From Mobula hypostoma (lineage: Eukaryota), in NCBI RefSeq assembly GCF_963921235.1, contig NC_086097.1, positions 131,876,001 through 131,940,000 of the forward strand: 64,000 nucleotides of DNA, in the 5' to 3' direction. Position numbers and translations under genes: made by a program. Positions within the stretch are counted from its first letter, which is position 1; each line of letters begins with the position of its first letter. Positions 26,275 to 63,244 of this stretch are shown here, in pieces. The notes beneath the pieces are model-generated. The model was not told the origin of the DNA. It ran no database searches and saw nothing but the letters and a program-made list of their open reading frames with translations.

Positions 26275-26887
26275 CTAAACTGTTTTATTTTGCACTACCC
26301 TCCGTAGATCTGGTTTCAGAATGTCTATGCAGGATCTCAGATTCTTGTTCATGAACAGCATTGCTGGTGTTTGATTTGTTGTTGCATGAACTGTGCTCCG
26401 ATACACAAACAAGAGGTTGTCCACCCTGTGCTGTAGAGAAGTGTCCTCTTTGCCCATCGCTTTAATGGACTTCTTGAAGGTTTGGATAAACTTTCAGCTA
26501 ACCCATTTGTTGCTGGATGGTGAGGAGCTGACTTGAAATATCTGATCCCATTTTTCTTCATGAACATTCTGAATTCTTCTGACATGTATTGTAGACCGTT
26601 GTCACTCACAATTTGTTCTGGTAAGACATTTCTAGCGAAGGTAGTTCTCAGGGTGGAGACAGTCTTTGCAGAGGAAGTTGACTTCATTGGTATCACCTCC
26701 AGCCACTTCAGATGAGTATCCACAGCAATCAGAAGTATGGAGTCCTTGAATGGCCCAGCAAAGTCAATGTGTACTCTTTGCCATAGTGAAGACGGCCACC
26801 TCCATGGGTGTGTTGCTGTCTGTGGGGGTGTATTTTGAACTTTTGACATCCTGAACAGCTTTTGGCCAGGTTTTCAATCTGTTTATC
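26275..26887 (-). pseudogene. Gypsy integrase (decayed)
   Basis: AKSCSGCQ zinc-finger half, WQRVHIDFAGPF, PEQIVSDNG, SAPHHPATNGLAE, YRSTVHATT. Confidence 0.9.
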
Positions 26888-27020
26888 TTCTCAAGCACCT
26901 TCTGATTAGCAATAAGCAGCAGTGGCAGCCTCTGGTTAGTGCTACCATTTAGAAGCAATTGCCTGTTGATGCCACACTGAGAGCTTTGATTGAGTGCCAG
27001 TCTAGTTGGATTTTTCTCAA

Positions 27021-28128
27021 CTATTCACATCCAAAACGTGCTGGCCTTCTACTTTTCAATATATAAAGCTCTAACTGTTGTGTTGGCCTCATATTCACCT
27101 TCAGTTTACCTTTGGGAGGCACATTTTCACCTGTGTAGGTCTTTAGCATCATTGAGGTCTTCTCTAATGGTATCTTAGAAAACAGTCTGTTGTAGTCAGC
27201 CTCTGGAATTATGGACAAAGCTGACCCTGTATCCAGGTCCATTTACAGTTTTACACTGGACACATCTATTGTGATCCATATAATTTTGTGATCCACTTCA
27301 GTTATACTACGAAGCTCTAGGCATAACAGTTCACCTTTGTCAGACTCTATGTTGTCTGATTCCGTTGTACATTTAGTAACTTTATGCATTTGCTTAGGTT
27401 TGTGTTTGAGACTTTTCACTCGATTGTGCTTTTTGACTACCTTGCACACTCTCCCTTGGTGACCTTGTCTGTGACACTTTCTACAGAATTTTTCAATGCA
27501 CCAACAGTCATTTGTATCATGGGAGAATTTGCCACACTGATAATATATTTGGTGTTTTGCACCATTCGGGAACATTTTGTGCATTTTACTTTCTAACCTC
27601 CTTTTCTGTGGTCCTGCTACATCCTTTGCTGCAATCTTTAACGATATTGCAACAGTCAATGCCCATTCTAAGTTTAGGTCTCTTTCTGCCAGTAGCCTCA
27701 TATGAGTGCTTTGACTACGCATGCCACATACAAGCCTATCCCTTAATACAACAGAAAGTCCATCTTTAAAGTCACAGTACTGGGAAAGTTTGTGCAGTTC
27801 TGCAATGTATTCAGAAATACTTTCACCTTTTGACTGGTTCCTTTTGTAAAATCTAAATATCTCAACCATTGCCAACAGTTTGGGCCTCAAGTGATTTTGT
27901 AAAATTGTAACAATTTTGTTGAACATCTTGCTTTTTGGCTTTGCAGGGATTACTAGGTTTCGTAAGAGACGGTACATCTTTGCACCCATTAAGCAAAGAA
28001 TGTAGTGACTTTCTTTTGCTGTTCCACATTGTTTACATTACAATACAGTTCAACCCTCTGGATATATGACTCCCAGCCTTCAATGGTGCTATCAATTTGT
28101 CAATTTCCCCGAACGAAGCCATCACCAT
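27021..28128 (-). pseudogene. Gypsy gag and aspartic protease (decayed)
   Basis: Gag LRDRLVCG and two CCHC-like knuckles (QCGKFSHDTNDC; CRKCHRQGHQGRVC). Protease LDTGSALSII. ATG near 28128. Confidence 0.9.
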
Positions 28129-32819: not shown

Positions 32820-34527
32820 AGAAACATAGAAAACCTACAGCACAATACAGGCCCTTCGGCCCACAAAACTGTGCCGAACATGTCCTTACCTTAGAAATTA
32901 CCTAGGGTTACCCATAGCCCCCTATTTGTCTAAGCTCCATGTACCTATCCAGCAGTCTCTTAAAAGACCCTATCGTATCTGCTTCCACCAATGTTGCCGG
33001 CAGCTCATTCCACGCACTGACCACTCGCTGCGTAAAAATCGTACTCCTGACATCTCCTCTGTACCTACTTCCAAGCATCTTAAAACTGTGCCCTCTCGTG
33101 CTAGCCATCTCAGCCCTGAGAAAAAGCTTCTGACTATCCACAAGATCAATGCCTCTCATCATCTTGTACACCTCTATCAGGTCACCGCTCATCCTCCATT
33201 GCTCCAAGGAGAGAAGGCCGAGTTCACTCAACCTATTCTCATAAGGGGGAGGGAGGGAGGGGAGGGGAAGGAACGTCGACTCAGACCATGAAAGGCCTGC
33301 ATCGGGCATTTTCATGCCTTACATAAGGCATGCTCCCTAATCCAGGCAACATCTCTGTAAATCTCCTCTGCACCCTTTCTATGGTTAACACATCCTTCCT
33401 GTAGTGAGATGACCAAAGCTGAGCACAGTACTCCAAGTGGGGTCTGACCAGCGTCCTATATAGCTGGTACATTACTTCTCGGCTCTTAAACTCAATCCCA
33501 CGATTGATGAAGGCCAATGTACCGTATGCCTTCTTAACCACAGAGTAAGCTTTGAGTGTCCTATGGACTTGGACCCCAAGATCCCTCTGATCCTCCACAC
33601 TGCCAAGAGTCTTACCATTAATGCTATATTCTGCCATCATATTTGACCTACCAAAATGAACCACCTCACATTTATTTGGGTTGAACTCCATCTGCCACTT
33701 CTCAGCCAGTTTTGCATCCTATCAGTGTCCCGCTGTAAACTCTGACAGCCCTCCACACTATCGATAACACCTCCAACCTTTGTGTCATCAGCAAATTTAC
33801 TAACCCATCTCTCCACTTCCTCATCCAGGTCATTTATAAAAATCACGAAAAGTAGGGGTCCCAGGACAGATCCCTGATGCACACCACTGACCTCCATGCA
33901 GAATATGACCTGTCTACAACTACTCTTTGCCTTCTGTGAGCAAGCCAGTTCTGGATCCACAAAGCAATGTCCCCTTGGATCCCATGCCTCCTTGCTTTCT
34001 CAATAAGCCTTGCATAGGGTACCTTATCAAATGCTTTGCTGAAATCCATATACACTACATCTACTGCTCTTCCTTCATCAATGCGTTGAATCACATCCTC
34101 AAAAAAATCAATCAGGCTCGTAAGCCACGAGCTGCCTTTGACAAAGCCATGCTGACTATTCCTAATCATATTATGCCTCTCCAAATGTTCATAAATCATG
34201 CCTCTCCAGATCTTTTCCATTAACTTACCAACCACTGAAGTAAGACTCATCGGTCTATAATTTCCTCGGCTACCTCTACTCCCTTTCTTGAATAAGGGAG
34301 CAACATCCGCAGCCCTCCAATCCTCTGGAACCTCTCCCGTCCCCATTGATGATGCAAAGATCATTGCCAGAGGCTCAGCAATCTCTTCCCTCGCCTCCCA
34401 CGGTAGCCTGGGGTTAATCTCATCTGGTCCTGGTAACTTATCCAACTTGAAGCTTTCTAAAACCTCCAGCATATCCTCTTCCTTAATATATACATGCTCA
34501 AGCTTTTCAGTCCGCTGTAAGTCATCA
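32820..34527 (-). mobile_element. CR1 LINE, 5'-truncated (RT domain and 3' end)
   Basis: [65 protein letters not shown]; (CATAGAAA)n tail. Confidence 0.95.
33247..33321 (-). mobile_element. 75-bp insertion (probable SINE 3' tip with (CCCT)n tail) inside the CR1
   Basis: 7-bp TSD CATAAGG at 33240-33246 and 33322-33328. Removing it restores the CR1 ...SMPYENRL sequence seen at 52537-52560. Confidence 0.75.
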
Positions 34528-37700: not shown

Positions 37701-37976
37701 GATAAACCAAAATGCCAAGGGAATATTTTGGAGGCTAGTTCAGCACAACATTGTAGGCCAAAGGGACTGTTCCTGTGCTGTATTGTTCCATGATCTATAT
37801 TTTCTGATAGGGTAATTCGTCTTGGTGTATAAGCCAAAATCTAATCTTGAAGCACCTTTCTCAAATGGTTCACTTTCATAGTGCTCTTTGATAGAGTATG
37901 CTGAGTGAAAATTGGATTCATTTTTTCCACAATATAACGCAATGAATATTTCAATGACTTTAAAGCAGTTGGTACG

Positions 37977-38223
37977 TACTGAGTATTTAATATTTCAGTA
38001 GTATTTGAGTAATAATAAAAATGTTTTGTTTGATTAAGCATTCTTGTTCATTTAAATAATTTATTATGAGAGTTGAAAAACAAATTAATTGCATACATCA
38101 TGACGATGCCACATGATTTGCGTGTGCCTTGCTTAAAGTAAACATGAAGTTAGTAACATTGTTCTGGACTCCCTTGTTTTTATTTCAATTACTTTTTATA
38201 TTTTGGAGTTACAAAATATAATA
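37977..38223 (+). repeat. 5' LTR
   Basis: Shares TTGTTTGAT.AAGC.TTCTTGTTCATT, CATACATCATGA and TTTGGAGTTACAAAA.ATAA.A with 43875-44104. Roughly 70-75% identical by eye. Confidence 0.8.
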
Positions 38224-38462
38224 GTGCCAATAAGTAAGCTTTAAACAAATCCAAGAAGACTACCTACCTGTTGAAGCACAGTGAGATATTTGAGTTTAAA
38301 AAAGCGCAGCAAGAAACGGTCGAGTAAAAAAAAACACCACAGCATGTGTTTCTTTGGGAATGGTTAGAGATTGTCAACTTATAAAAACGTAGAAAACAGA
38401 CACATTTATGGGTTTATAAACAGTAAGTACCAGGTGATAATAATCTTTAAAAAAGAGCGGAA

Positions 38463-39336
38463 ATGGTTGACTATATCAGAAAGACTGATGTATTCGATCA
38501 CACAACAGAAAACTGGCTCATATATATTGAGCTAATTGAACAATATTTGGAAGCTTATGAAATAATCAATGAGAAGCAAACACCAGTTTTGCTGAGTGCA
38601 TTCAGGTTAAAGGCATACAGTTTGCTGAGAAACTTAACTGCTCCAACTAATCAAGTCGAGATAAGTTTTGCTGATATCACAAAACTAATGTAGAAAAACT
38701 TAGAACTGAAACCATTGTTGATTGTAGACTGTTTAGGTTTCATAAGAAGAATTAAAGTGAGCTTGAACAAAATTGCAATGTTTAATTTGCCTGGCTGAAA
38801 AAATTATCTTATCGCTATGGTAAGACCTCACATACACCATTCCACTGCAGGTTTAAGGGTGAAATTTGCAGAAAATGCAACGAAGTATAACATATGCAGA
38901 GAGCATATCGGGGAGATAAAAATAAATGGACTGCAGAGAGAAGAGTAAAAGATAAAAAGTCAAATTGCAGTTTCAAAAGAGCATTATTCTGCATGCTGTG
39001 GATGAAAAACATGATAATGATAAGAGAGACACTGGAGTAAATAGCCTTGAGATTTACTATGTGAAAACTAACAATAGACAAGCAATATGGTTTTCACTAG
39101 AAGTGAACAGAAAATCAATTAAAATGGAATTGGACACTGGCTTGGTACTTCCAGTCATTCAACTAAATGTGTTTGAATGGCATTTCAAAGATACTAAAGT
39201 AAACCATGCAGATATCCAACTAAGAAATTATAATAGAGAAAAGATAACTCCTCTGGTAATGACATTCTTAACAGTGAAATACAACAACAAACAAGCCTCA
39301 TTGGACTTGTATATGATAAAAACAAAAGAGTATGTA
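38463..39336 (+). pseudogene. Gypsy gag and protease (decayed)
   Basis: FDHTTENW..YIE.IEQY...KAYSLLRNLTAP, knuckle CRFKGEICRKC, protease IKMELDTG. Confidence 0.85.
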
Positions 39337-39344
39337 ATTGTGAG

Positions 39345-42300
39345 TGTAAACACGAGAAAATCTGCAGATTCTGGAAATTCAAGCAACACACATAAATTGC
39401 TGGTGGAACACAGCAGGCCAGGGAGCATCTATAGGAAGAAGTACAGTCGAATTTGGGCTGAGACCCTTCGTCAGGACTAACTGAAAGAAGAGTTAGTAAG
39501 AGATTTGAAAGTGAGAAGGGGAGGGGGAGATCCGAAATGATAGGAGGAGACAGGAGGGGGAGGGATGGAGCCAAGAGCTGGAAAGTTGATTGGCAAAAGG
39601 GATACAGAGTTGGAGAAGGATCATGGGACGGGAGGCCTAGAGAGAAAGAAAGAAAGAAAGGGGGACGGGAGCCTAGAGGAAGATGGAGAGCAGGCAAGGA
39701 GTGATTGTGAGAGGGACAGAGAAAGAGAAAAAAGGGTGGAGAAATAAAAATAGACAAGGGATGGGGTAAGAAGGGGAGGAGGGGCATTAACGGAAGCTAG
39801 AGAAATCAATGTTCATGCCATCAGGTTGGAGGCTACCCAGACTGAATATAAGGTGTTGTTCCTCCAACCTGAGTGTGGCTTCATCTTGACAGTAGAGGAG
39901 GCCGTGGATAGACATATCAGAATGGGAATGGGATGTGGAATTAAAATGTGTGGCCACTGGGAGATCCTGCTTTCTCTGGCAGACAGAGCGTAGGTGTTCA
40001 ACGAAATGGTCTCCCAGTCTGCATCAGTTCTCATCAATATATAGAAGGCCACACCGGGAGCACCGGACGCAGTATATCACCCCAGCACACTCACAGATGA
40101 ACTGTCGCCTCACCTGGAAGGACTGTCTGGGGTCCTGAATGGTGGTGAGGGAGGAAGTGTAAGGGCATGTGTAGCACTTGTTCCACTTACAAGGATAAGT
40201 GCCGGGAGGGAGATCGGTGGGAAGGGATTGGGGGGGGGGGGGGAACGAATGGACAAGGGAGTCACGTGGGGAGAGATCCCTGTGGAAAGCAGAAAGAGTG
40301 GAGGAGGGAAAGATGTGCTTGGTGGTGGGATCCTGTTGGAGGTGGCAGAAGTTACAGAGAATTATATGTTGGACCCGGAGGCTGGTGGGGTGGTAGGTAA
40401 GGACAAGGGGAACCCTATCCCTAGTGGGGTGGCGGGAGGATGGGGTGAGAGCAGATGTGTGTGAATTGGGAGAGATGTATATCAGAGCAGAGTTGATGGT
40501 GGAGGAAGGGAAACCCCTTTCTTTAAAAAAGGAAGACATCTCCTTTGTCCTGGAATGAAAAGCCTCATCCTGAGAGCAGATGCGGTGGAGATGGAGGAAT
40601 TGCGAGAAGGGGATGCCATTTTTGCAAGTGACAGGGTGGGAAGAGGAATAGTCCAGGTAGCTGTGAGAGTCCGTAGGCTTATAGTAGACATCAGTAGATA
40701 AGCTGTCTCCAGGTACCAAAAAGGGATTAAATTTATAGGAGATTGTTATGAACGAGGTATATTGATGTCATTTGAACAACTAAAGGATAAATATAAAATA
40801 TCAAATAACACTTTCTTTTGTTACCTTCAATTAAGGGCTTACTTAAAAGGTAAACTGGGTCAAACAATGTTTTTGCCAAAACCTAATGAAATTGAAACTT
40901 TAATTCAAAAAGGGAAAATTAAAAAATTTATTTCTTGTATGTATAATTTGATTCAAAAACAGGCAATTAAACAAGGAATCCATAAGTCAAAACAAAAATG
41001 GGAAACAGATCTGAATATTAATATTGATGAAACAAATTGGTCAAGACTCTGTCTTGACAGTATGACAAATACAATAAATGTTCGACTTAGATTAGTACAA
41101 TATAATTTTTTACACCAATGATATATAACACCACAAAAAGTAAATAGATTAAATTCAAATTTATCCGATAAATGCTTTCGGTGTAATCAAGAAATTGGTA
41201 CTTTCTTACATTCTACTTGGTCTTGTTTTAAAATTCAACCCTTTTGGATAAATTTAAGAGTCTTATTGGAACAAATTACTGGAACTCAACTTCCATATAA
41301 CCCTGTATTATTTCTATTAGGTGATATTGAAGGGATAAAGCCGAAACTTAAATTGAATAAATATCAGAAAGAATTTATAAAAATTACACTGGCAGTAGCT
41401 AAGAAGACTATAGCAGTTACTTGGAAATCTGATTCATATTTAAGTATGAATCGTTGGAATAACGGCTAGTTCTATTCCACTCGAAAAAGTTACTTATAAT
41501 TTAAGAGATAAATATGTAACATTTTTGAATATTTGGCGCCCTTATTTACAAAAGATAGGATGGCATATTTAAGTGCTCCAATAAAGATCTTGGTCCCTTG
41601 GGGAAAGTAACGAATAAGTATACCAAATTTATTTTGAATCCCATGGAGCATGTGGAAACCTTCCAATACCCAGGCGGTTCTTCTTTTTTTCCTTCTTTCT
41701 TTTTTAGGTAGGACTATATATGGGGGGGGGGAGGGTTAAGGGGAGGGGGGAGGGTAGATACTATCTTTTCATGGATTCATTTTGAAAATTCAATAAAAAT
41801 TATATATTAAAAAAATGGCAGAAAAAAAAGAAAAAAAAAGTAAAAAAAAAAAGAAAGGGGAGGGACCTGTCAGAAATGGACCAGGTAAACTTGAGGGCAG
41901 GGTGAAAGTTGGAGGCAAAGTTAATAAAGTCAACTAGCTCAGCATGCGTGCAGGAAGCAGCGCCGATGCAGTCGTCGATGTAGCGGCAGGAAAGTGGGGG
42001 ACGGACACCAGTATAGGCTTGGAACATGGATTGTTCCACAAAGCCAACAAAAAGGCAGGCATAGCTGGGGCCCATATGGATGCCCATGGCTATACCTTTA
42101 GTTTGGAGGAAGTGGGAGGAGCCAGAGGAGAAATTATTCAGAGTAAGGACTAATTCTGCTAGACAGAGCAGAGTGGTGGTAGAGGGGAACTGGTTAGGTC
42201 TGGAATCCAAAAAGAAGTGGAGAGCTTTGAAACCTTCCTGGTGGGGTATGGAAATATATAGGGACTGGACATCCATGGTGAAAATAAGATGTTGGGGTTA

Positions 42301-42570
42301 GGGAACTTAAAATCATTGAAAAAATTCAGAGCGCGAGAAGTGTCACGAACATAGGTGGGAAGGGATTGAATAAGGGGGAATAAAACAGTGTCGAGGTATG
42401 CAGAAATGAGTTCGGTGGGACAGGAGCAAGCTGAGACAATGGGTCTACCTGGACAGGCAGGTTTGTGGATCTTGGGTAGGAGGTAGAAACGGGAAGTGCG
42501 GGGTGTGGGAACTATGAGGTTGGTGGCAAGGGATGGGAGATCCCCAGAGCTGATAAGGTTAGTGATCGTG
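39345..42570 (-). mobile_element. Penelope-like element (RT and GIY-YIG), 5'-truncated, split by L1
   Basis: FYLLPKIHKP..PGRPIVS, MDVQSLY.SIP, GIAMG..MGPSYACLF, RYIDD, YYKPTDSHSYL, GVIYCVRCSRCGLLYI. Flanked by 8-bp direct repeat ATTGTGAG (39337-39344, 42571-42578). Confidence 0.93.
40712..41851 (+). mobile_element. 5'-truncated L1-clade LINE (ORF2 C-terminus, 3' UTR, poly-A)
   Basis: LMSFEQLKDKY..FFCYLQLR, RLRLVQYNFLH, CCHC CFRCNQEIGTFLHSTWSC, G-rich 3' UTR tract, AATAAA at 41792-41797, A-rich tail. Confidence 0.92.
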
Positions 42571-42704
42571 ATTGTGAGGATGTGATTGGCTGAGACAACT
42601 ACAACCTGACTGGAGATCCATTCACAATTTGCATGCTGCATCCCTTGTTTTAGAAGGAGTCAACTGAAAACGAATTAAGAAAGGTAATGCATGATGATAC
42701 AGTT

Positions 42705-43560
42705 GTCTCCATGAGCCATTGCCCAATAGAGGGCAAACAAGTGTTGGTGCCAACGTCTGTGCCTCTGGTTGGAAATCAGATTGGACCAAAGGAAGACCAT
42801 GCTGTTCAGAGGAATTGTATAAATGACGAAAGCCATGGTCTGAATACAACAGTTTTTGTGGCCAATGTATCTGAGAAAGCTTCTGATATGTTAATCAGAT
42901 AGTTACTTGCAAAGTGTGGCTTGGTTTTCAGCTGGAAGGGGAGTTCAAAGAGCTTCAGGAAAGTTGCAAGTATTTGGCATTTATGAGTCTAAAGCGCCAG
43001 AATCCACTCTGTATGCATATTAAGTGGGAGACAAAAAGTTGCTTGGAAAAGTAGATGCAAAGGCCAAAGCCCAACTGGATGAATGGAAGGCCAAGATGAG
43101 ACACAAAAGCAGAGTATTTGTTAGATGATGTGAATGAGGAAACCTAAAGGAGAGATCAGATTGTAAAGGGATCATTAGAAGAATTAATTAGAGAATATTC
43201 CAGTGAACTAAATGGAACTTCCCAAGATCCAGATGCACATCCTAGAAAGAAGAAAAGGAAAAGAAAGAGGAGGATAACATAAATCTGTGAAAATGGAAGA
43301 GGATAAACAAGAACAGAGTTCTCAAGAAATTCGCAAATGGAGAGATATTCACAAGAAACTAGAAGAAAAAGGACGACGAGAAAACGGAAGGCAAAAAATT
43401 GAAAAGGAGAGAAGAGATAGAGAGAAAGAACATGAGTGAGAAAGAATTGGAGGAGCAAAAGAACACAAGAAAGAACACGAGTTGGAAAAGAGAGAGTAAG
43501 AAGCTGGGAGAAGAAAGGATTGATGTAAATCAAGAGAGAAAAGCCAAGGAAAGGAGAAAA
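42705..43560 (+). pseudogene. RBM25: Processed (intronless) RBM25 fragment: RRM plus start of the Arg/Glu-rich region
   Basis: Translates, with stops and frameshifts, to VLVPT...TTVFVANVSEKASDMLIR*LLAKCGLVFSWK, ASGKLQVFG.YE.K.PESTL, GDKKLL.KVDAKAKAQLDEWKAK, RRDQIVKG..E.LIREYSSELN..SQD.DAHPRKKK, MEEDK...QEIRKWRDIHKKLEE, EKERRDRE. Colinear with vertebrate RBM25 as I recall it. Confidence 0.93.
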
Positions 43561-43745
43561 TAAGGTGTCCAGAGCTGTCAGAGCCATTTCCTGCAGTCTC
43601 AGAGTCAACCACCATGGAGGAGGTCCCAGAAAATGAATTTGCTACACAGCTATGAGTCTCTCCTGCCAAATAGACTGACCTTCCATATCAGGAAAAACAT
43701 TACCCCACATGAGTAAGAGATCTTCCACAGCAATTAAATCTTTAG
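43560..43745 (+). pseudogene. Post-integrase C-terminal tail of Gypsy pol
   Basis: RCPELSEPFPAVSES...QEKHYPT*VRDLPQQLNL* resembles the R-Y-P-x-R-x-R-x-P-P-x-R-L tail of this Gypsy group. Followed by PPT and LTR. Confidence 0.7.
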
Positions 43746-43874
43746 GCCTGAATGGGACAATTTAAAATTTATTATGCTGTGGGTGTCTGTATGGTAGTTG
43801 TATTATATAGTGTACTGTGTATATAGTTGATGCACTCTCTATTGAGTTGGAATTTATAGCTAAGCGGGGAGGAG

Positions 43875-44104
43875 CATTGTGTATTCAGTAACATTTGAGC
43901 AGTATTGTAAATATGTTGTTTGATAAAGCTTTCTTGTTCATTGAAGTAATTCACTATGGCTATATGTAAAAATTAGTGATTTCCATACATCATGATGCCA
44001 CCACGTGATACGTACGCATCTCGCTTAATGTTAGATATGTTATTCTGAAATCCCTTGCTTCTATTTTGAATAGTTTTTATGCTTTGGAGTTACAAAACAT
44101 AACA
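43875..44104 (+). repeat. 3' LTR
   Basis: Immediately follows the PPT, ends ...AACATAACA, similar to 37977-38223. Confidence 0.8.
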
Positions 44105-44489
44105 GTAAGGCAAGCCTTCCTTGGAGTTAGATCAGCGGGGTCGATGAAATACTCATAATCCTGTATAAAGATTTTGCACCGCCTATGGCTGTTAGGTTGA
44201 AAACCAGGCTAGGTGAAATGAGAAGGTGAGCCAACATCCTGATCTCTTTGATGATCCACTTGCACAACCATTCTGCTATCATTCTGTTTCTGGGCAATGA
44301 ACAAAAATGCAAATTGGTATGGATTACAGTTAACTCCAGTGGGAGAAACTGTGTGAGTGCTGATTTAATATGAACCTTAAACAGTGGACAATAATGCTTC
44401 TTTTTTGGAGCAAATCTCGTCTCTAACTACAAATAGAAGAAAGCTACCCTGAGAAGAATTTGTCAAGTCAAGTCTTCTTGGTGCAGCCT

Positions 44490-45030: not shown

Positions 45031-45789
45031 TTACAGTCTCAACGGGGAAGGGTGGTAATTGGTCTTATCCCAGCCTGCTTGTTCAAATAGAGATTCTTTA
45101 TCATCCAGCCAATTTAAATAAGTAACAATATCAGAAGAAGTAGCACATAATAAGAGTTTTCATATGTGTCCCTGGCTTGTGCCTTTCTAAACTTTTAAGT
45201 ATTAATTCTGTTGTCCACCAGTGTATGTCACGCACTGTAGCATGGCCATTGGTGTTCTACATCACCCATGATACTAAAACCACCTGTGCCAAAGTTTAAA
45301 ATAATGTATATTGTGATTGCATGAAAACATACAGCATGTAAGTGCATATCCCAAATGTGTGATAACAGAAACACATCTCAGACATGGTAGCTTGTTTTGA
45401 ACCAAATATCACAGGAAAAGAAAGAGGAGAGACACTGAGTATTGAAGTTGGGTTGTTAAGTTGCAGTTGTACAAGTTTTAGTAAGGCCGCACTTGGAATA
45501 TTGTGTTCAGTTTTGGTCACCCTGCTACACAGAAGATGCCATCAATCTGGAAAGCGTGCAGAAAAGGTTTACAGGGATGTTACCAGGACTCGACAAACTG
45601 GGTTATAGGGAGAAATTGATCAGCCTTGGACCTTATTCCCTGAAACTCTGAACTGAGGGGTAAACTGAGAGAGGGATATAAAAGCATGAGGGGCATTGAT
45701 AGGGAGAATGTATGCAGGGTTAGAGAATGAAGAACTAGGAGACATAGGGTTAAGGTGAGAAGTTAGAAAAGAATAATAGGAACCTGAAA

Positions 45790-46014
45790 CACACATCAAA
45801 GTTGCTGGTGAACGCAGCAGGCTAGGCAGCATCTCTAGGAAGAGGTACAGTCGACGTTTCGGGCCGAGACCCTTCGTCAGGACCCTTCGTCGGGGTCTCG
45901 GCCCGAACGTCGACTGTACCTCTTCCTAGAGATGCTGCCTGGCCTGCTGTGTTCACCAGCAACTTTGATGCGTGTTGCTTAAATTTCCAGCATCTGCAAA
46001 ATTCCTCATGTTTG
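45790..46014. mobile_element. Palindromic miniature Penelope-derived element
   Basis: Inverted arms of about 85 bp (45788-45872 and 45893-45976) homologous to the Penelope terminus at 39350-39480. Perfect 14-bp TSD ATAGGAACCTGAAA (45776-45789, 46015-46028). Confidence 0.9.
45848..45883 (-). ncRNA. Minimal type I hammerhead ribozyme motif
   Basis: Minus strand reads GTC-CTGACGA-A-GGGTCTCGGCCC-GAAAC-GTC^GACTG: CUGANGA and GAAA boxes, helix II hairpin, GUC cleavage triplet, helix I GUC/GAC. Confidence 0.75.
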
Positions 46015-51142: not shown

Positions 51143-52975
51143 GGGATGACTTTCAGTGGACTGAAAAGCTTGAGCACGTAGATACTAAGAAAGACGATGT
51201 GCTGGAGCTTTTGGAAAGTATCAAGTCACTGGGACCAGATGAGATATACCCCAGGCTACTGTGGGAAGTGAGAGAGGAGATTGCTGAGCCTCTGGCGATG
51301 ATCTTTGCATCTTCAATGGGCAAGGGAGAAGTTCCGGGGGATTGGTGGGTTGCGGATGTTGTTCCCTTATTCAAGAAAGGGAGTAGAGATAGCCCAGGAA
51401 ATGATGGACCAGTGAGTCTTACTTCAGTGGTTGGTAAGTGATGGAAAAGATCCTGAGAGGCAAGATCTATGAACATTTGGAGAGGCATAATATGATTGGG
51501 AATGGTCATATTATTCCAAGTGCTCCTGCCACGTTTTGTCACCCTGCAACCTTATCCTTCAAACTCTTTGAATCATGGAGGACAGCATGTGTATGAATGT
51601 CTCTCTTCAGCAGACTTCATCATGATTATCATGACTCCAATATTTTTACTATTTTTAAATGTCTCTTAATTGTACATATGACTTCTTTGTGTTCTATCGC
51701 TGCGCAGCAGTGAACCATCTGACTGGCCTATCAGAGTTCTCTTTGAAAACTAGTTGACCTGATCAGCATTTCTGATCTGGCTATTGTTCATGATTGCACT
51801 TAAAAAAAAAGTCAACATGGGTTTGTCAAAGGTAGGTGGAGCCTTACAAGCCTGATTGAATTTTTTGAGGATGTGACTAAACACATTGATGAAGGTAAAG
51901 AATTGGCTTGCCCACAGAAGGCAAAGAGTGGTTGTAGATGGGTCATATTCTGCATGGAGGTCGATGACCAGTGGAGTGCCTCAGGGATCTGTTGTGGGGC
52001 CCTTACTCTTTGTGATTTTTATAATTGACCTGGATGAGGAAGTGGAGGGATGGGTTAGTAAATTTGCTGATGACACAAAGGTTGGGGGTGTTGTGGATAG
52101 TGTGGAGGGCTGTCAGAGGTTACAGCAGGTAATCGATAGGATACAAAACTGGGCTGAGAAGTGGCAGATGGAGTTCAACCCAGATAAGTGTGAGGTGGTT
52201 CATTTTGGTAGGTCAAGTATGATGGCAGAATATGGTATTAATTGTAAGACTCTTGGCAGTGTGGAGGATCAAAGGGATCTTGGGGTCCAAGTCCACAGGA
52301 CAGTCAAAGCTGCTGCACAGATTGACACTGTGGTTAAGAAGGCATATGATGCATTGGCCTTCATCAATCGTGGAATTGAGCTTTGGAGCTGAGAGGTAAT
52401 GTTGCAGCTATATAGGACCCTGGTCAGACCTCACTTGGAATACTGTGCTCAGTTCTGGTCGCCTCACTCAAGAAAGATGTTGAAACCACAGGAAGGGTGC
52501 AGAGGAGATTTACAAGGATGTTGCCTGGATTGGGGAGTATGCCTTATGAGAATAGGTTGAATGAACTCAGCCTTTTCTCCTTGGAGTGACAGAGGATGAG
52601 ATGTGATCTGATAGAGGTGTGTAAGATGATGAAAGGCATTGATTATGTGGGTAGTCAGAGGCTTTTTCCCAGGGCTGAAATTAACATGAGAAGGCACAGT
52701 TTCAAGGTGCTTGGAAGTAGGTACAGAGGAGATATCAGGGGTAAGATTTTTACGCAGGAAGTGGTGAGTACATGGAATGGTCTGCCTGCGATGGTGGTGG
52801 AGGCGGATATGATAGGGTCTTTTAAGAGACTCCTGAATAGGTACATGAAACTTAGGAAAATAGGGGGCTATGGGTAACCCTAGATAATTTCTAAAGTAAG
52901 GACATGTTTGGCACAGCTTTGTGGACCGAAGAGCTAATATTGTGCTTTCTATGTGAAGGCTTTCTATGTTTCTAT
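51143..52975 (+). mobile_element. CR1 LINE, 5'-truncated, same subfamily as 32820-34527
   Basis: GPDEIYPRLL.E.REEIAEPL, SGVPQGSV.GPLLF, KFADDTK, TTTCTATGTTTCTA tail. Internal deletion near 51898 and an insertion at 51509-51810. Confidence 0.93.
51509..51810 (+). other. Unclassified 302-bp A-tailed insertion within the CR1
   Basis: Interrupts CR1 ...GGAATGGTCA|GTCAACATGG with GTCA duplicated; ends in A9. Confidence 0.6.
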
Positions 52976-59921: not shown

Positions 59922-62900
59922 AGCCTCCTATATGTCTGGGACAAACAGTAGGGACGCCGTTTTTTGGTCGACACCGGAGCGGAGATCAGCGTCTTACCTC
60001 CAACGAGTTACGACACCCGCAACAGAGAACCGGGACCCACCCTGAAGGCCACAAATGGCAGCACAATATGAACCTACAGCACCCACACGGTGCGGCTACA
60101 GTTCTGCTCTAGCCGGTTCACGTGGGACTTCACACTGGCCGCCGTGGCCCAACCACTCCTGGGGGCGGATTTTCTACGAGCTCACAGCCTGCTGGTCGAC
60201 CTGCAAGGGAAGCGATTAGTTCACGCCAAGACTTTTCAAATGTTCTCCCTGGGTGAAGCACAGTTGCCAGCCCCACACCTGGACTCCATCACACTGTCCG
60301 ACGACAAATTCACCAGGGTCCTGGCAAATTTCCCATCAGTACTGACACTGCAGTTCATGGCAGCCATGCCCAGACACGGACTACAGCACCACATCCCGAC
60401 CCAGGGACCACCCCTCCATGCCCGTGCTCGAAGGCTTCCCCCGGACAAGCTCCAACTGGCGAAGGAGGAGTTCAAGAAGATGGAGGAATTGAAGATCATA
60501 TGACGGTCCGACAGCCCATGGGCCTCCCCCCTTCACATGGTGCCCAAGGCAACGGGGGGCTGGAGACCATGCAGTGACTACCGCAGACTTAACGAGGCTA
60601 CAACGCCAGACCGCTATCCTGTGCCGCACATTCAAGACTTCGCAGCAAACCAACACGACGCAAGGATCTTTTCCAAGGTAGACCTCATCCGGGGATACCA
60701 TCAAGTCCCAGTACATCTGGACGACATCCCCAAAACAGCACTCATCACCCCGTTTGGACTTTTCGAATTCCTTCGAATGCCGTTCGGTCTAAAAAATGCC
60801 GCACAGATGTTCCAGTGGTTAATGGACGCGGTGGGACGCGACCTGGACTTTGCATTCATCTATTTGGACGACATCCTCATAGCCAGCAGTAGTCGGCAGG
60901 AGCATCTGTCCCACCTCCGCCAGCTCTACTCCCGCCTTAGTGAATTCGGCCTTACAATCAACCCAGCCAAATGCCAGTTCGGACTCGATACCATCAACTT
61001 CCTGGGCCACAGGATTACTAAAGATGGGGCAACCCTGCTGCCCGCCAAGGTAGACGCGGTCTACCACTTCCCCCGACCCAACACAATCAAAGGCCTGCAG
61101 GAATTCGTGGGTATGGTGAATTTCTACCACCGTTTCCTCCCCTCAGCAGCCCGAACCATGCGCCCCCTGTTCACCCTGATGTCGGGTAAGGGCAAGGACA
61201 TTACCTGGGACGAAGAGGCCGCAGTTGCTTTCGTTAAAACCAAAGAAGCCTTGGCAAACGCCGCGATGCAAGTGCACCCCAGAACAGACGTTCCTACTGC
61301 CCTCATGGTGCATGCATCCAACACAGCAGTCGGTGGAGTGCTGGAACAACTCATCGAGGGTCGCTGACAACCCCTGGCATTCTTCAGCAAACACCTACGA
61401 CCACCCGAACTCAAATACAGTGCTCTCAACCGGGAGGTATTGGCACTATACCTGGCAAGCCGGCATTTCAGGTACTTCTTAGAAGGTAGGCCCTTCACCG
61501 TGTTCACAGGCCACAGACCGCTTACTTTTGCGTTCATGAAGGTGTCCGACCCCTGGTCGTCCCGCCAGCAGCAACATCTGTCCTACATCTCTGAGTACAC
61601 GACGGACATCCGGCATGTCTCAGGAAAGGACAACGTCATGGCTGAGGCATTACCCAGACCTACCATACAGGCCCTGTCCCAGGGGGTGGACTATGCAGCG
61701 CTGGCAGAGGCACAGCAGGCAGACGCTGAGATCCCCAGTTACAGGACTGTAGTCTCCAGTTTGCAGCTTCAAGACCTCCCTGTAGGCCCAGGTGAGAGGA
61801 CCCTACTATGTGACGTAGCTACCGGCCAACCCCGCCCCGTCGTCCCAGCAGCCTGGCACCGGCGGGTTTTCGAATCCATTCACAACTTAGCGCACCCCTC
61901 CATCAGGACAACTGTCCGGCTGGTCGCCAACAGGTTCGTGTGGCATGGACTTCGTAAACAGGTCAGTGAATGGGCCAAAACGTGCATGCAGTGCCAAACG
62001 GCCAAGGTGCAGCGGCACACCAAGGCTCCGCTGCAGCAGTTCGAACCCACCCGCCGGAGGTTCGACCACATCCATGTGGATATCGTGGGGCCTCTGCCAG
62101 TGTCACGAGGAGCGCGGTACCTCCTAACTATGATAGACCGGTTCACCAGATAGCCAGAGGCGGTCCCGCTCACCGACACCACCTCCGAATCCTGCGCCCG
62201 AACACTAATCGCAACCTGGGTAGCCGCTTCCGGGTACCGGCCCACATTACCTCCGACAGGGGTGCCCGGTTCACCTCCAGCCTGTGGTCGGCTATGGCCA
62301 GCCATTTAGGATCGCAGCTACACCACACAACTGCCTACCATCCACAGTCGAACGGACTAGTGGAGCGTTTCCACTGTCACCTGAAGTCGGCTCTCATGGC
62401 CCGCCTGGAAGGGCCTAACTGGGTGGACGAACTTCCCTGGGTCCTGCTCGGAATCCGCACGGCGCCCAAGGAGGATCTACACACCTCGTTGGCCGAGTTG
62501 GTGTACGGCGCATGCCTGGTCGTCCCAGGAGAGTTCATACCAGCCCCAAGGGGGCAAGAGGAAGAACCCACAGCAGTCCTGGACAGCCTACGTGACAGGC
62601 TCAGTAACTTGGCCCCCATACCCACTTCACAGCACGGACAGAGCCCAACCTGCGTACCCAAAGACCTGCAGAACCGTAAGTTTGTTTTCGTACGACGGGG
62701 CAGACACTGGACACCACTACAGCGGCCCTACGAGGGGCTGTTTAAGGTGATCAGGAACAACGAGTCCATGTTCGTGCTGGACATTGGGGGAAGAGAGGAG
62801 GTTTTCACGGTGAACCGACTCAAACCGGCCCATGTGGACTTGGCACAGCCGGTCCAGGCTCAGGCACCACGGCGCAGGGGCAGACCTCCCAAACAGAGGC

Positions 62901-62958
62901 TGATCCAGACTGTGGACATTGGGGGAGATATCGCCGGTTCTGCGGGGGGGGGGGTTAA
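59922..62958 (+). pseudogene. Gypsy pol (PR-RT-RNase H-integrase), inactivated
   Basis: FLVDTGA (DTG at 59970), DYRRLN, RMPFGLKNA, YLDD (60861), integrase HNLAHP..C..C, HIHVDIVGPL, ITSDRG, YHPQSNGLVER. Stops at 59949, 60069, 60501, 61365 and 62151; frameshift near 62225. Confidence 0.95.
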
Positions 62959-63244
62959 TGTGGTGACCCACTTTCTAGCACACACGAACCGGCTTACGAA
63001 ACAGTGCGCACAGGCAGAGGGCTGGCCCCAAAAAGGGTGCCAGGCCATCTTCACCGCTGGGGGAAAATCCCGCGCGCGGAAAAGATCTGGGAATATGCAT
63101 TCCCCACAGCAGTCCCACCCAGGGAGGGCGGGAACGGGAAGGCTTTAAAGCAGGCCATGAAGTTTGAATAAATCTCTTTCATCGCAACTCCAACTCACCA
63201 ACTACGTGTGGTTATTTTAGCGCTGTGTGTAGCACACCGCTACA
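62959..63244 (+). repeat. 3' LTR (286 bp)
   Basis: Direct repeat of 58522-58808. Confidence 0.95.

Follow-up and report, generated by a model that had tools for sequence, protein, structure and literature searches.

Replication-defective transducing retroviruses (v-onc) carry host mRNA sequence in place of pol, fused in frame to gag, and need a helper. The RBM25-bearing Gypsy element described in this study is like them in that host mRNA stands in place of pol, in frame with gag, and in that its spread probably needed a helper. It is unlike them in being a Gypsy element without env and not a retrovirus, in showing no sign of selection on its cargo, and in having been amplified in the germline and not by infection. 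Viral oncogene capture and HERV-K/FAM8A1 are treated as host-gene captures in the portions of Tan et al. (2016; PMC5131818) used here, which describe LTR-mediated retrocopies in animals with a median microsimilarity of 6 bp at the joints, a preferred switch site of the element in BLASTOPIA, and re-transposition at a few sites. As in the retrocopies described there, a partial intronless mRNA replaces part of an element ORF with microsimilarity at both joints; poly(A) and TSD are lacking, both LTRs are present, and re-transposition as a non-autonomous element is possible. The RBM25 chimera is intronless, is flanked by a single, discontinuous LTR family and bears no L1 hallmarks, as LTR-mediated retrocopies do, and its tail joint recurs in the chimeric family, as in BLASTOPIA. 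In contrast to the cases in those portions, one RBM25 capture yielded 622 copies or more, probably ~3,400, which form subfamilies, are old and are common to several species. The species set given there includes no cartilaginous fish.

In maize, as far as the text drawn on here reports, the low-copy element Bs1 combines pieces of three genes and was reported to be transcribed and translated (PMC13317346, PMC2774510), and 425 intact gene-bearing LTR elements trace back to 189 or more captures, some two elements for each (PMC2774510). The RBM25 family likewise holds host gene sequence in an LTR element with a chimeric ORF, whereas, relative to the maize elements as described there, it comprises one gene, one capture and probably thousands of dead copies. 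Fish K02A2.6-like Ty3/Gypsy elements (P0111-P0115, P0119) have in common with it the order gag-CCHC-protease-linker and pol tail, the single gag-pol ORF type and the 5-bp TSD, but the chimeric family is without RT, RNaseH and integrase. An open-access literature search listed no report of this RBM25 chimeric family, which may nevertheless have an entry in Repbase or Dfam. The capture mechanism is already published (Tan et al., 2016; PMC5131818); the novelty lies in how far a single capture was amplified.

Architecture of the window element

Positions 37977-44104 of the window (the whole stretch of 64,000 nucleotides that was analysed, G000:C1:131876001-131940000) are a decayed Gypsy element in which RBM25 coding sequence stands where RT-RNaseH-integrase belongs. 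Its features are:

37972..37976, plus strand: left target-site duplication GTACG, 4/5 identical to the right copy
37977..38223, plus strand: 5' LTR, aligning with the 3' LTR
38224..38235, plus strand: primer-binding site (PBS), degenerate
38463..38926, plus strand: broken gag with CCHC region, ATG at 38463, matching Gypsy polyprotein P0114
38929..39336, plus strand: broken protease region (P0114 match 38929-39328)
39337..42578, minus strand: nested Penelope-like retroelement (RVT_1 match; GIY-YIG/HTH_animal look-alikes)
40713..41815, ends approximate, plus strand: L1 3' fragment inside the Penelope-like element (L1 ORF2 match, E 2e-7)
42571..42697, plus strand: Gypsy protease-RT linker (P0114 match)
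42698..42704, plus strand: 5' breakpoint region, a decayed remnant of the 7-nt TGCCACA and the final codon of the upstream host exon
42705..43562 (about; also given to 43565), plus strand: spliced RBM25 mRNA fragment, by host exon alignment
43554..43562, plus strand: 3' breakpoint, the decayed 9-nt word GAGAAGAAA common to host mRNA and parent pol end
43563..43745, plus strand: C-terminal tail of Gypsy pol (P0114 match); in the family its frame differs from that of RBM25
43862..43874, plus strand: polypurine tract (PPT)
43875..44104, plus strand: 3' LTR, aligning with the 5' LTR
44105..44109, plus strand: right target-site duplication GTAAG

An earlier note, made from the sequence of the window, had read the layout as LTR-PBS-gag-protease-linker-RBM25-pol tail-PPT-LTR. 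LTR alignment, the P0114 matches and the PPT at 43862-43874 uphold this reading, and comparison with 14 other family copies agrees with its description of the PBS as degenerate. Gag, protease, linker and pol tail all match in order one 1319-aa K02A2.6-type Gypsy polyprotein, P0114 (domain reference: Pfam RT, RNaseH and rve), of which RT, RNaseH and integrase find no counterpart between the window LTRs. None of the window's decayed gag, protease and RRM frames was recognised by Pfam. The copy is dead, as the note had stated: it carries stops and frameshifts, its LTR pair has diverged to a K2P of 0.286, and it has private deletions of ~200 nt in gag near 38750 and at the 5' junction.

The Penelope-like element is bounded by an 8-bp TSD, ATTGTGAG, at 39337-39344 and 42571-42578, and interrupts the protease end, where other family copies pass directly from protease to linker. 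It is a later insertion, absent from other copies. The nesting of Penelope and L1 in the Gypsy element, which the note had also proposed, is confirmed by this TSD and the L1 ORF2 match.

The captured RBM25 fragment and its breakpoints

The insert was tested by protein search with the frame of one family copy, and RBM25 proved to be the right name: among 104 protein matches, the informatively named ones are all RBM25 or RRM/PWI-domain entries, the best being 81% to Heptranchias perlo RBM25. The host RBM25 gene, located with an RBM25 C-terminal piece as query, lies on the same contig ~32 Mb from the window (99.79-99.84 Mb, minus strand), and its protein matches that of Heptranchias perlo at 196 of 203 aligned residues. 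The closeness to this shark, the best named match, points to a cartilaginous fish as the host. A Pfam PWI search returned other PWI genes only and no RBM25.

Nine exons of host RBM25 are represented in the insert. In the window piece, eight host exons are matched in order without any intron, where the host introns measure 1-6 kb. The first of the eight is an in-frame 48-nt cassette exon, followed by the RRM, the acidic region, the start of the RE repeat (with a deletion) and the start of the next exon. Among 89 aligned copies (19 from the DNA search, 9 and 60 from the protein search, and the window), all eight exon junctions are intron-free in every copy that covers them (51/51, 62/62, 76/76, 81/81, 80/80, 59/59, 47/47 and 31/31), so that the suspected splicing of the insert is seen across the exon-exon junctions of the host locus. 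Since the first junction is joined without an intron, the captured sequence must start at the very end of the exon that precedes the cassette. Both ends do lie inside coding sequence, as the earlier note had it, but the start had to be shifted to the last ~10 nt of that preceding exon.

In the host gene the cassette exon is located at 99832633-99832586 (G000:C1, in L040), 48 nt long, in frame and upstream of the RRM. The next host exon has an alternative acceptor 12 nt upstream, used by shark isoforms, which contains a stop in the present genome. Among the proteins compared, only P0002, P0106 and P0107 include the cassette exon, the named ones being shark. The Heptranchias 'RBM25-like' proteins P0002 and P0106 were considered as chimeras and rejected, as their ends are intron read-through of the kind that the host gene would give.

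A pol-bearing parent family is present in the same genome (30 linker-to-RT and 30 integrase-to-tail loci examined). Several of the 20 integrase-end loci viewed at length cover >1,200 of the 1,319 residues, and compared with P0114 the parent copies keep the Ty3/Gypsy pol order PR-RT-RNaseH-integrase, whereas the chimeric copies do not. Flank comparison assigns the Gypsy sequences on both sides of the insert to a single family, as assumed in the earlier reading, and this family still has pol-bearing copies in the genome. At the 5' joint, TGCCACA (7 nt) is common to parent and host mRNA, and the chimeras are parent-like up to this word and host-like beyond it. At the 3' joint, parent and host mRNA have the 9-nt purine word in common. 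The microhomologies looked for at the breakpoints are thus 7 and 9 nt long; random parent pol/mRNA joints share at least 7 nt at a frequency of 8e-4 and at least 9 nt at 7e-5. In total, ~850 pol codons were exchanged for ~1,070 nt of mRNA (length in today's host).

In 69 of the 82 copies that have a tail, and whatever their host-side end, the tail joint falls at one point, give or take a few bases; in the other 13 it lies elsewhere, and seven of the 89 copies have no tail. Three pol-deleted parent copies (L056, L065 and L067) join the tail at that same point. The tail joint is a recurrent switch or deletion site.

Internal deletions in L056, L065, L067 and L073, all parent copies, end at or near the tail-start purine word. 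L065 and L073 have one upstream joint in common and perhaps represent another amplified deletion family. L067 and L068 (G000:C1:168.15 Mb) are identical and 11 kb apart, a recent tandem or assembly duplication.

Size, age and spread of the chimeric family

Against the 3.48-Gb genome, the RBM25 piece gave 2,822 candidates as DNA (40 scored, 40 matching) and 3,899 as protein (150 scored, 150 matching). A 21-mer across the 5' junction occurs at 622 genome places at up to one mismatch, with none for the control, which sets a floor to family size and shows that the junction of the window copy marks an amplified family; the parent 21-mer occurs at 1,316 places. These 21-mers would recover 16 of the 88 chimeric loci sampled and, for the parent, 7 of 20, in small, best-scoring samples, and the corrected copy numbers, ~3,400 chimeric versus ~3,800 parent, are very rough.

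Sixty copies were fetched, a non-random set of 40 upper-rank and 20 short-match picks; Gypsy sequence lies upstream in 55, downstream in 58 and on both sides in 53. By protein comparison, RT, RNaseH or integrase was found in 0 of 102 loci. An apparent integrase insert in L196 turned out to be an unrelated repeat, nested also in the reference copy used. All 14 short loci picked by the junction alone run on into RBM25. Chimeric copies without nested inserts measure 2.6-3.0 kb. A perfect 5-bp TSD flanks 6 of 15 two-ended copies (mismatched pairs: 1.4%), and the TSD is at least 4/5 in 8 of 15 (mismatched pairs: 12.9%) and below 4/5 in 7 of 15.

The family thus has the features of a non-autonomous LTR family, namely two LTRs, PBS, PPT and TSD without RT or integrase. 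LTR-LTR divergence is much the same in the two families, with a median K2P of 0.235 (range 0.16-0.29, n=20) in chimeric and 0.244 (n=7) in parent copies. Many dispersed independent insertions and an autonomous partner of the same age were therefore both observed. All copies seen are decayed, and their structure points to mobilisation in trans; this proposal of the earlier note agrees with a pol-less family far larger than one copy and a parent of the same age.

A short subfamily (~22 sampled copies) is defined by a common deletion between two purine-rich repeats and has LTR variants of its own, and several long copies have one 138-nt RE-repeat deletion in common. Such subfamily-specific common deletions indicate that copies begot copies. 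Two oriented copies show local tandem structure: three tandem copies of the 5' junction unit in L122:2504-2907 and a tandemly repeated 51-nt tail unit in L118:3841-4480.

Long and short forms agree in their 5' breakpoint, in the isoform that they carry and in the majority differences that set them apart from today's host gene. The chimeric family very probably has one origin, on the basis of the common junction and the host-part variants and not of a tree. In the protease-linker no site separates chimeric from parent copies; in tail and LTR a few do. The tail+LTR tree is star-like and does not recover the chimeric copies as one clade, with 17 changes for the chimeric-versus-parent character and 2 of 86 branches starred; such a tree neither proves nor excludes one chimeric clade.

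Outside CpG, the majority differences between family and host are 27 synonymous and 1 non-synonymous, and at that one codon a shark has the family residue. About 27 of some 190 synonymous sites amount to 0.14, near half of the LTR divergence, 0.12. This agreement suggests a burst shortly after capture, with the majority differences mostly reflecting later evolution of the host gene.

Copies were also found in DNA runs of three other organisms. Runs of organism B contain a fraction of 0.23-0.33 of the window words, and those of six further organisms about 0.11-0.12. In the contig comparison, done at 80% likeness, organism B contigs are 96-98% like the window copy and ~98% like the right flank, far above the paralogue level of 75-88%; therefore, the window insertion is shared with organism B. 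The 5' junction is bridged by a contig of organism H and the 3' junction by one of organism D. Where contigs of B and D cross from LTR to flank, they reach only 25 and 28 nt into the LTR (bar 31), and orthology of the window insertion in organism D is suggestive only. In three organisms the summed contig depth of the RBM25 part is hundreds of times the flank depth, a ratio that is not a copy number. The epaulette shark mutation rate is given per generation in the part of PMC10587355 used here and did not serve for dating.

A one-time LTR capture of a host mRNA can thus yield a major vertebrate repeat family, with an amplification two to three orders of magnitude above the published cases compared, as far as their texts were drawn on. 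Thousands of copies preserve an old RBM25 transcript including its cassette exon, which makes synonymous change in the host comparable with neutral repeat decay, and insertions in common between species are phylogenetic markers. The family will also cause confusion when genomes that carry it are annotated for RBM25, masked for repeats or used for mapping reads.

Mechanism, cargo and alternative origins

Very probably, RBM25 mRNA was co-packaged and captured by two microhomology-guided template switches, and the product, with its cis signals kept, was then amplified in trans by the contemporaneous parent. A double template switch fits the microhomology at both breakpoints. The non-autonomous family would go back to a single ancient event, in which a virus-like particle formed by an autonomous K02A2.6-type Gypsy also enclosed spliced RBM25 mRNA. 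The RT copying Gypsy RNA would have switched at the 9-nt purine word onto the RBM25 mRNA, copied ~1.07 kb of coding sequence and returned to Gypsy RNA at the 7-nt word just past the protease-RT linker. In this way ~2.5 kb of RT-RNaseH-integrase would be lost, and LTRs, PBS, gag, protease, tail and PPT retained. The ~3-kb product was presumably reverse-transcribed and integrated repeatedly by enzymes of the parent family while the parent itself spread, giving a few thousand copies, and shorter deletion subfamilies would have arisen and spread in turn.

With the same origin, it is tempting to speculate that the cargo was useful, in that an in-frame Gag-PR-RRM protein, or else the purine-rich RNA, made the element RNA more stable or better packaged or exported and drove the success of the element. 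An RRM/RE segment fused behind Gag-protease, where RT would be freed, could make a better parasite: a splicing factor's own RNA-binding module or purine-rich RNA signals might favour export or packaging, which would explain why the family rivals its helper in copy number, and thousands of RBM25-like repeats might turn small-RNA silencing on an essential host gene. We consider both the useful cargo and this extension of it unlikely. Of 58 measurable copies, 45 read in frame across the 5' junction and 13 do not, open frames cross this junction in real copies, and no indel in gag-PR-linker is common to the chimeras and missing from the parents. At the 3' junction the tail is out of frame, with a modal spacing of 20 nt in 32 of 47 copies. 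The founder could, judged by sequence, encode Gag-PR-cassette-RRM-RE with a short foreign end; the Gag-PR-RRM/RE fusion frame of the earlier note thus holds in real copies, but it does not continue into the tail. The RRM is kept in both subfamilies, in at least 13 of 14 junction-picked copies as far as 1.5 kb shows, and the chimeric copy number is near that of the parent. The 27:1 ratio would likewise suit a useful cargo.

However, a host gene under purifying selection would give that ratio as well, provided that the burst came directly after capture, and the pattern of synonymous differences neither shows nor excludes a role of the fusion. A correct frame arises by chance 1 in 3 times, and the short subfamily, which has lost the RE region, nonetheless accounts for 6 of the 14 copies picked by the junction. 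Neutrality is seen both for changes at 10-25% frequency (N+stop/S 2.7 vs 2.8 expected) and for rare changes in 89 copies (3.4 vs 2.8 expected). Protein searches across the junction gave no passing match, and none of 83 protein matches convincingly spans it (seven inspected). In one run guessed to be RNA, no junction-bridging piece is among the matches listed, which says nothing either way. An intact, expressed ORF under selection, as a functional chimeric retrogene would have, was not found: the window copy is broken and, in the sample of copies, rare changes are neutral. Most likely, the RBM25 piece is a passenger. The family makes testable whether cargo aids the spread of an element and whether a host gene suffers off-target silencing.

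Potentially, the founder arose at the DNA level, where a spliced RBM25 cDNA or older retrocopy and a Gypsy copy or cDNA were joined by microhomology-mediated repair before non-autonomous spread. The 7- and 9-nt microhomologies suit end-joining as well as template switching, and L1 and Penelope reverse transcriptases abound in the genome. We regard this as quite improbable, as it requires two rare steps and the insert is sense-oriented and replaces pol exactly between two common words. In addition, reuse of the tail point in L056, L065, L067 and chimeras with other host-side ends is what an RT switching hotspot predicts, and a search with the PWI part gave three host exons only and no retrocopy of the 3' part.

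Template switching is also preferred to an L1-driven RBM25 processed pseudogene that landed in a Gypsy copy, with deletions then removing pol and the L1 hallmarks. L1 occurs in the genome and internal deletions are frequent in the chimeric family. Inspection of both insert ends found no poly(A) and no TSD of its own, as the earlier note had maintained, and both ends lie inside coding sequence; the 3' poly(A), flanking TSD and mRNA 3' end of an L1-type processed pseudogene are missing. Both of the deletions required would need to stop at a word in common with pol, and 0 of 102 copies keep RT, RNaseH or integrase. This origin is largely refuted and very improbable. That the many copies stem from one chimeric locus by duplication, segmental or tandem, has nothing specific in its favour (one duplicated pair, L067/L068, is among the parent loci). 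In the sample this origin is refuted by dozens of contigs, unrelated flanks and own TSDs, and its probability is negligible.

Other repeats lie in the window. At 26284-28093 (minus strand) there is a decayed K02A2.6-type Gypsy with gag-protease and integrase and no RT match, of another family by DNA, and at 59967-63145 (plus strand) a Gypsy pol (RT-RNaseH-integrase) that is GC-rich, has retained CpG and belongs to an unrelated family, apparently a younger one. The segments 34067-34526 and 51145-51962, ~17 kb apart, form long inverted repeats with 84-92% identity and probably represent a LINE present twice, in opposite orientations. A 71-nt inverted repeat at 45788-45976, 96% complementary, is Penelope-type terminal sequence.
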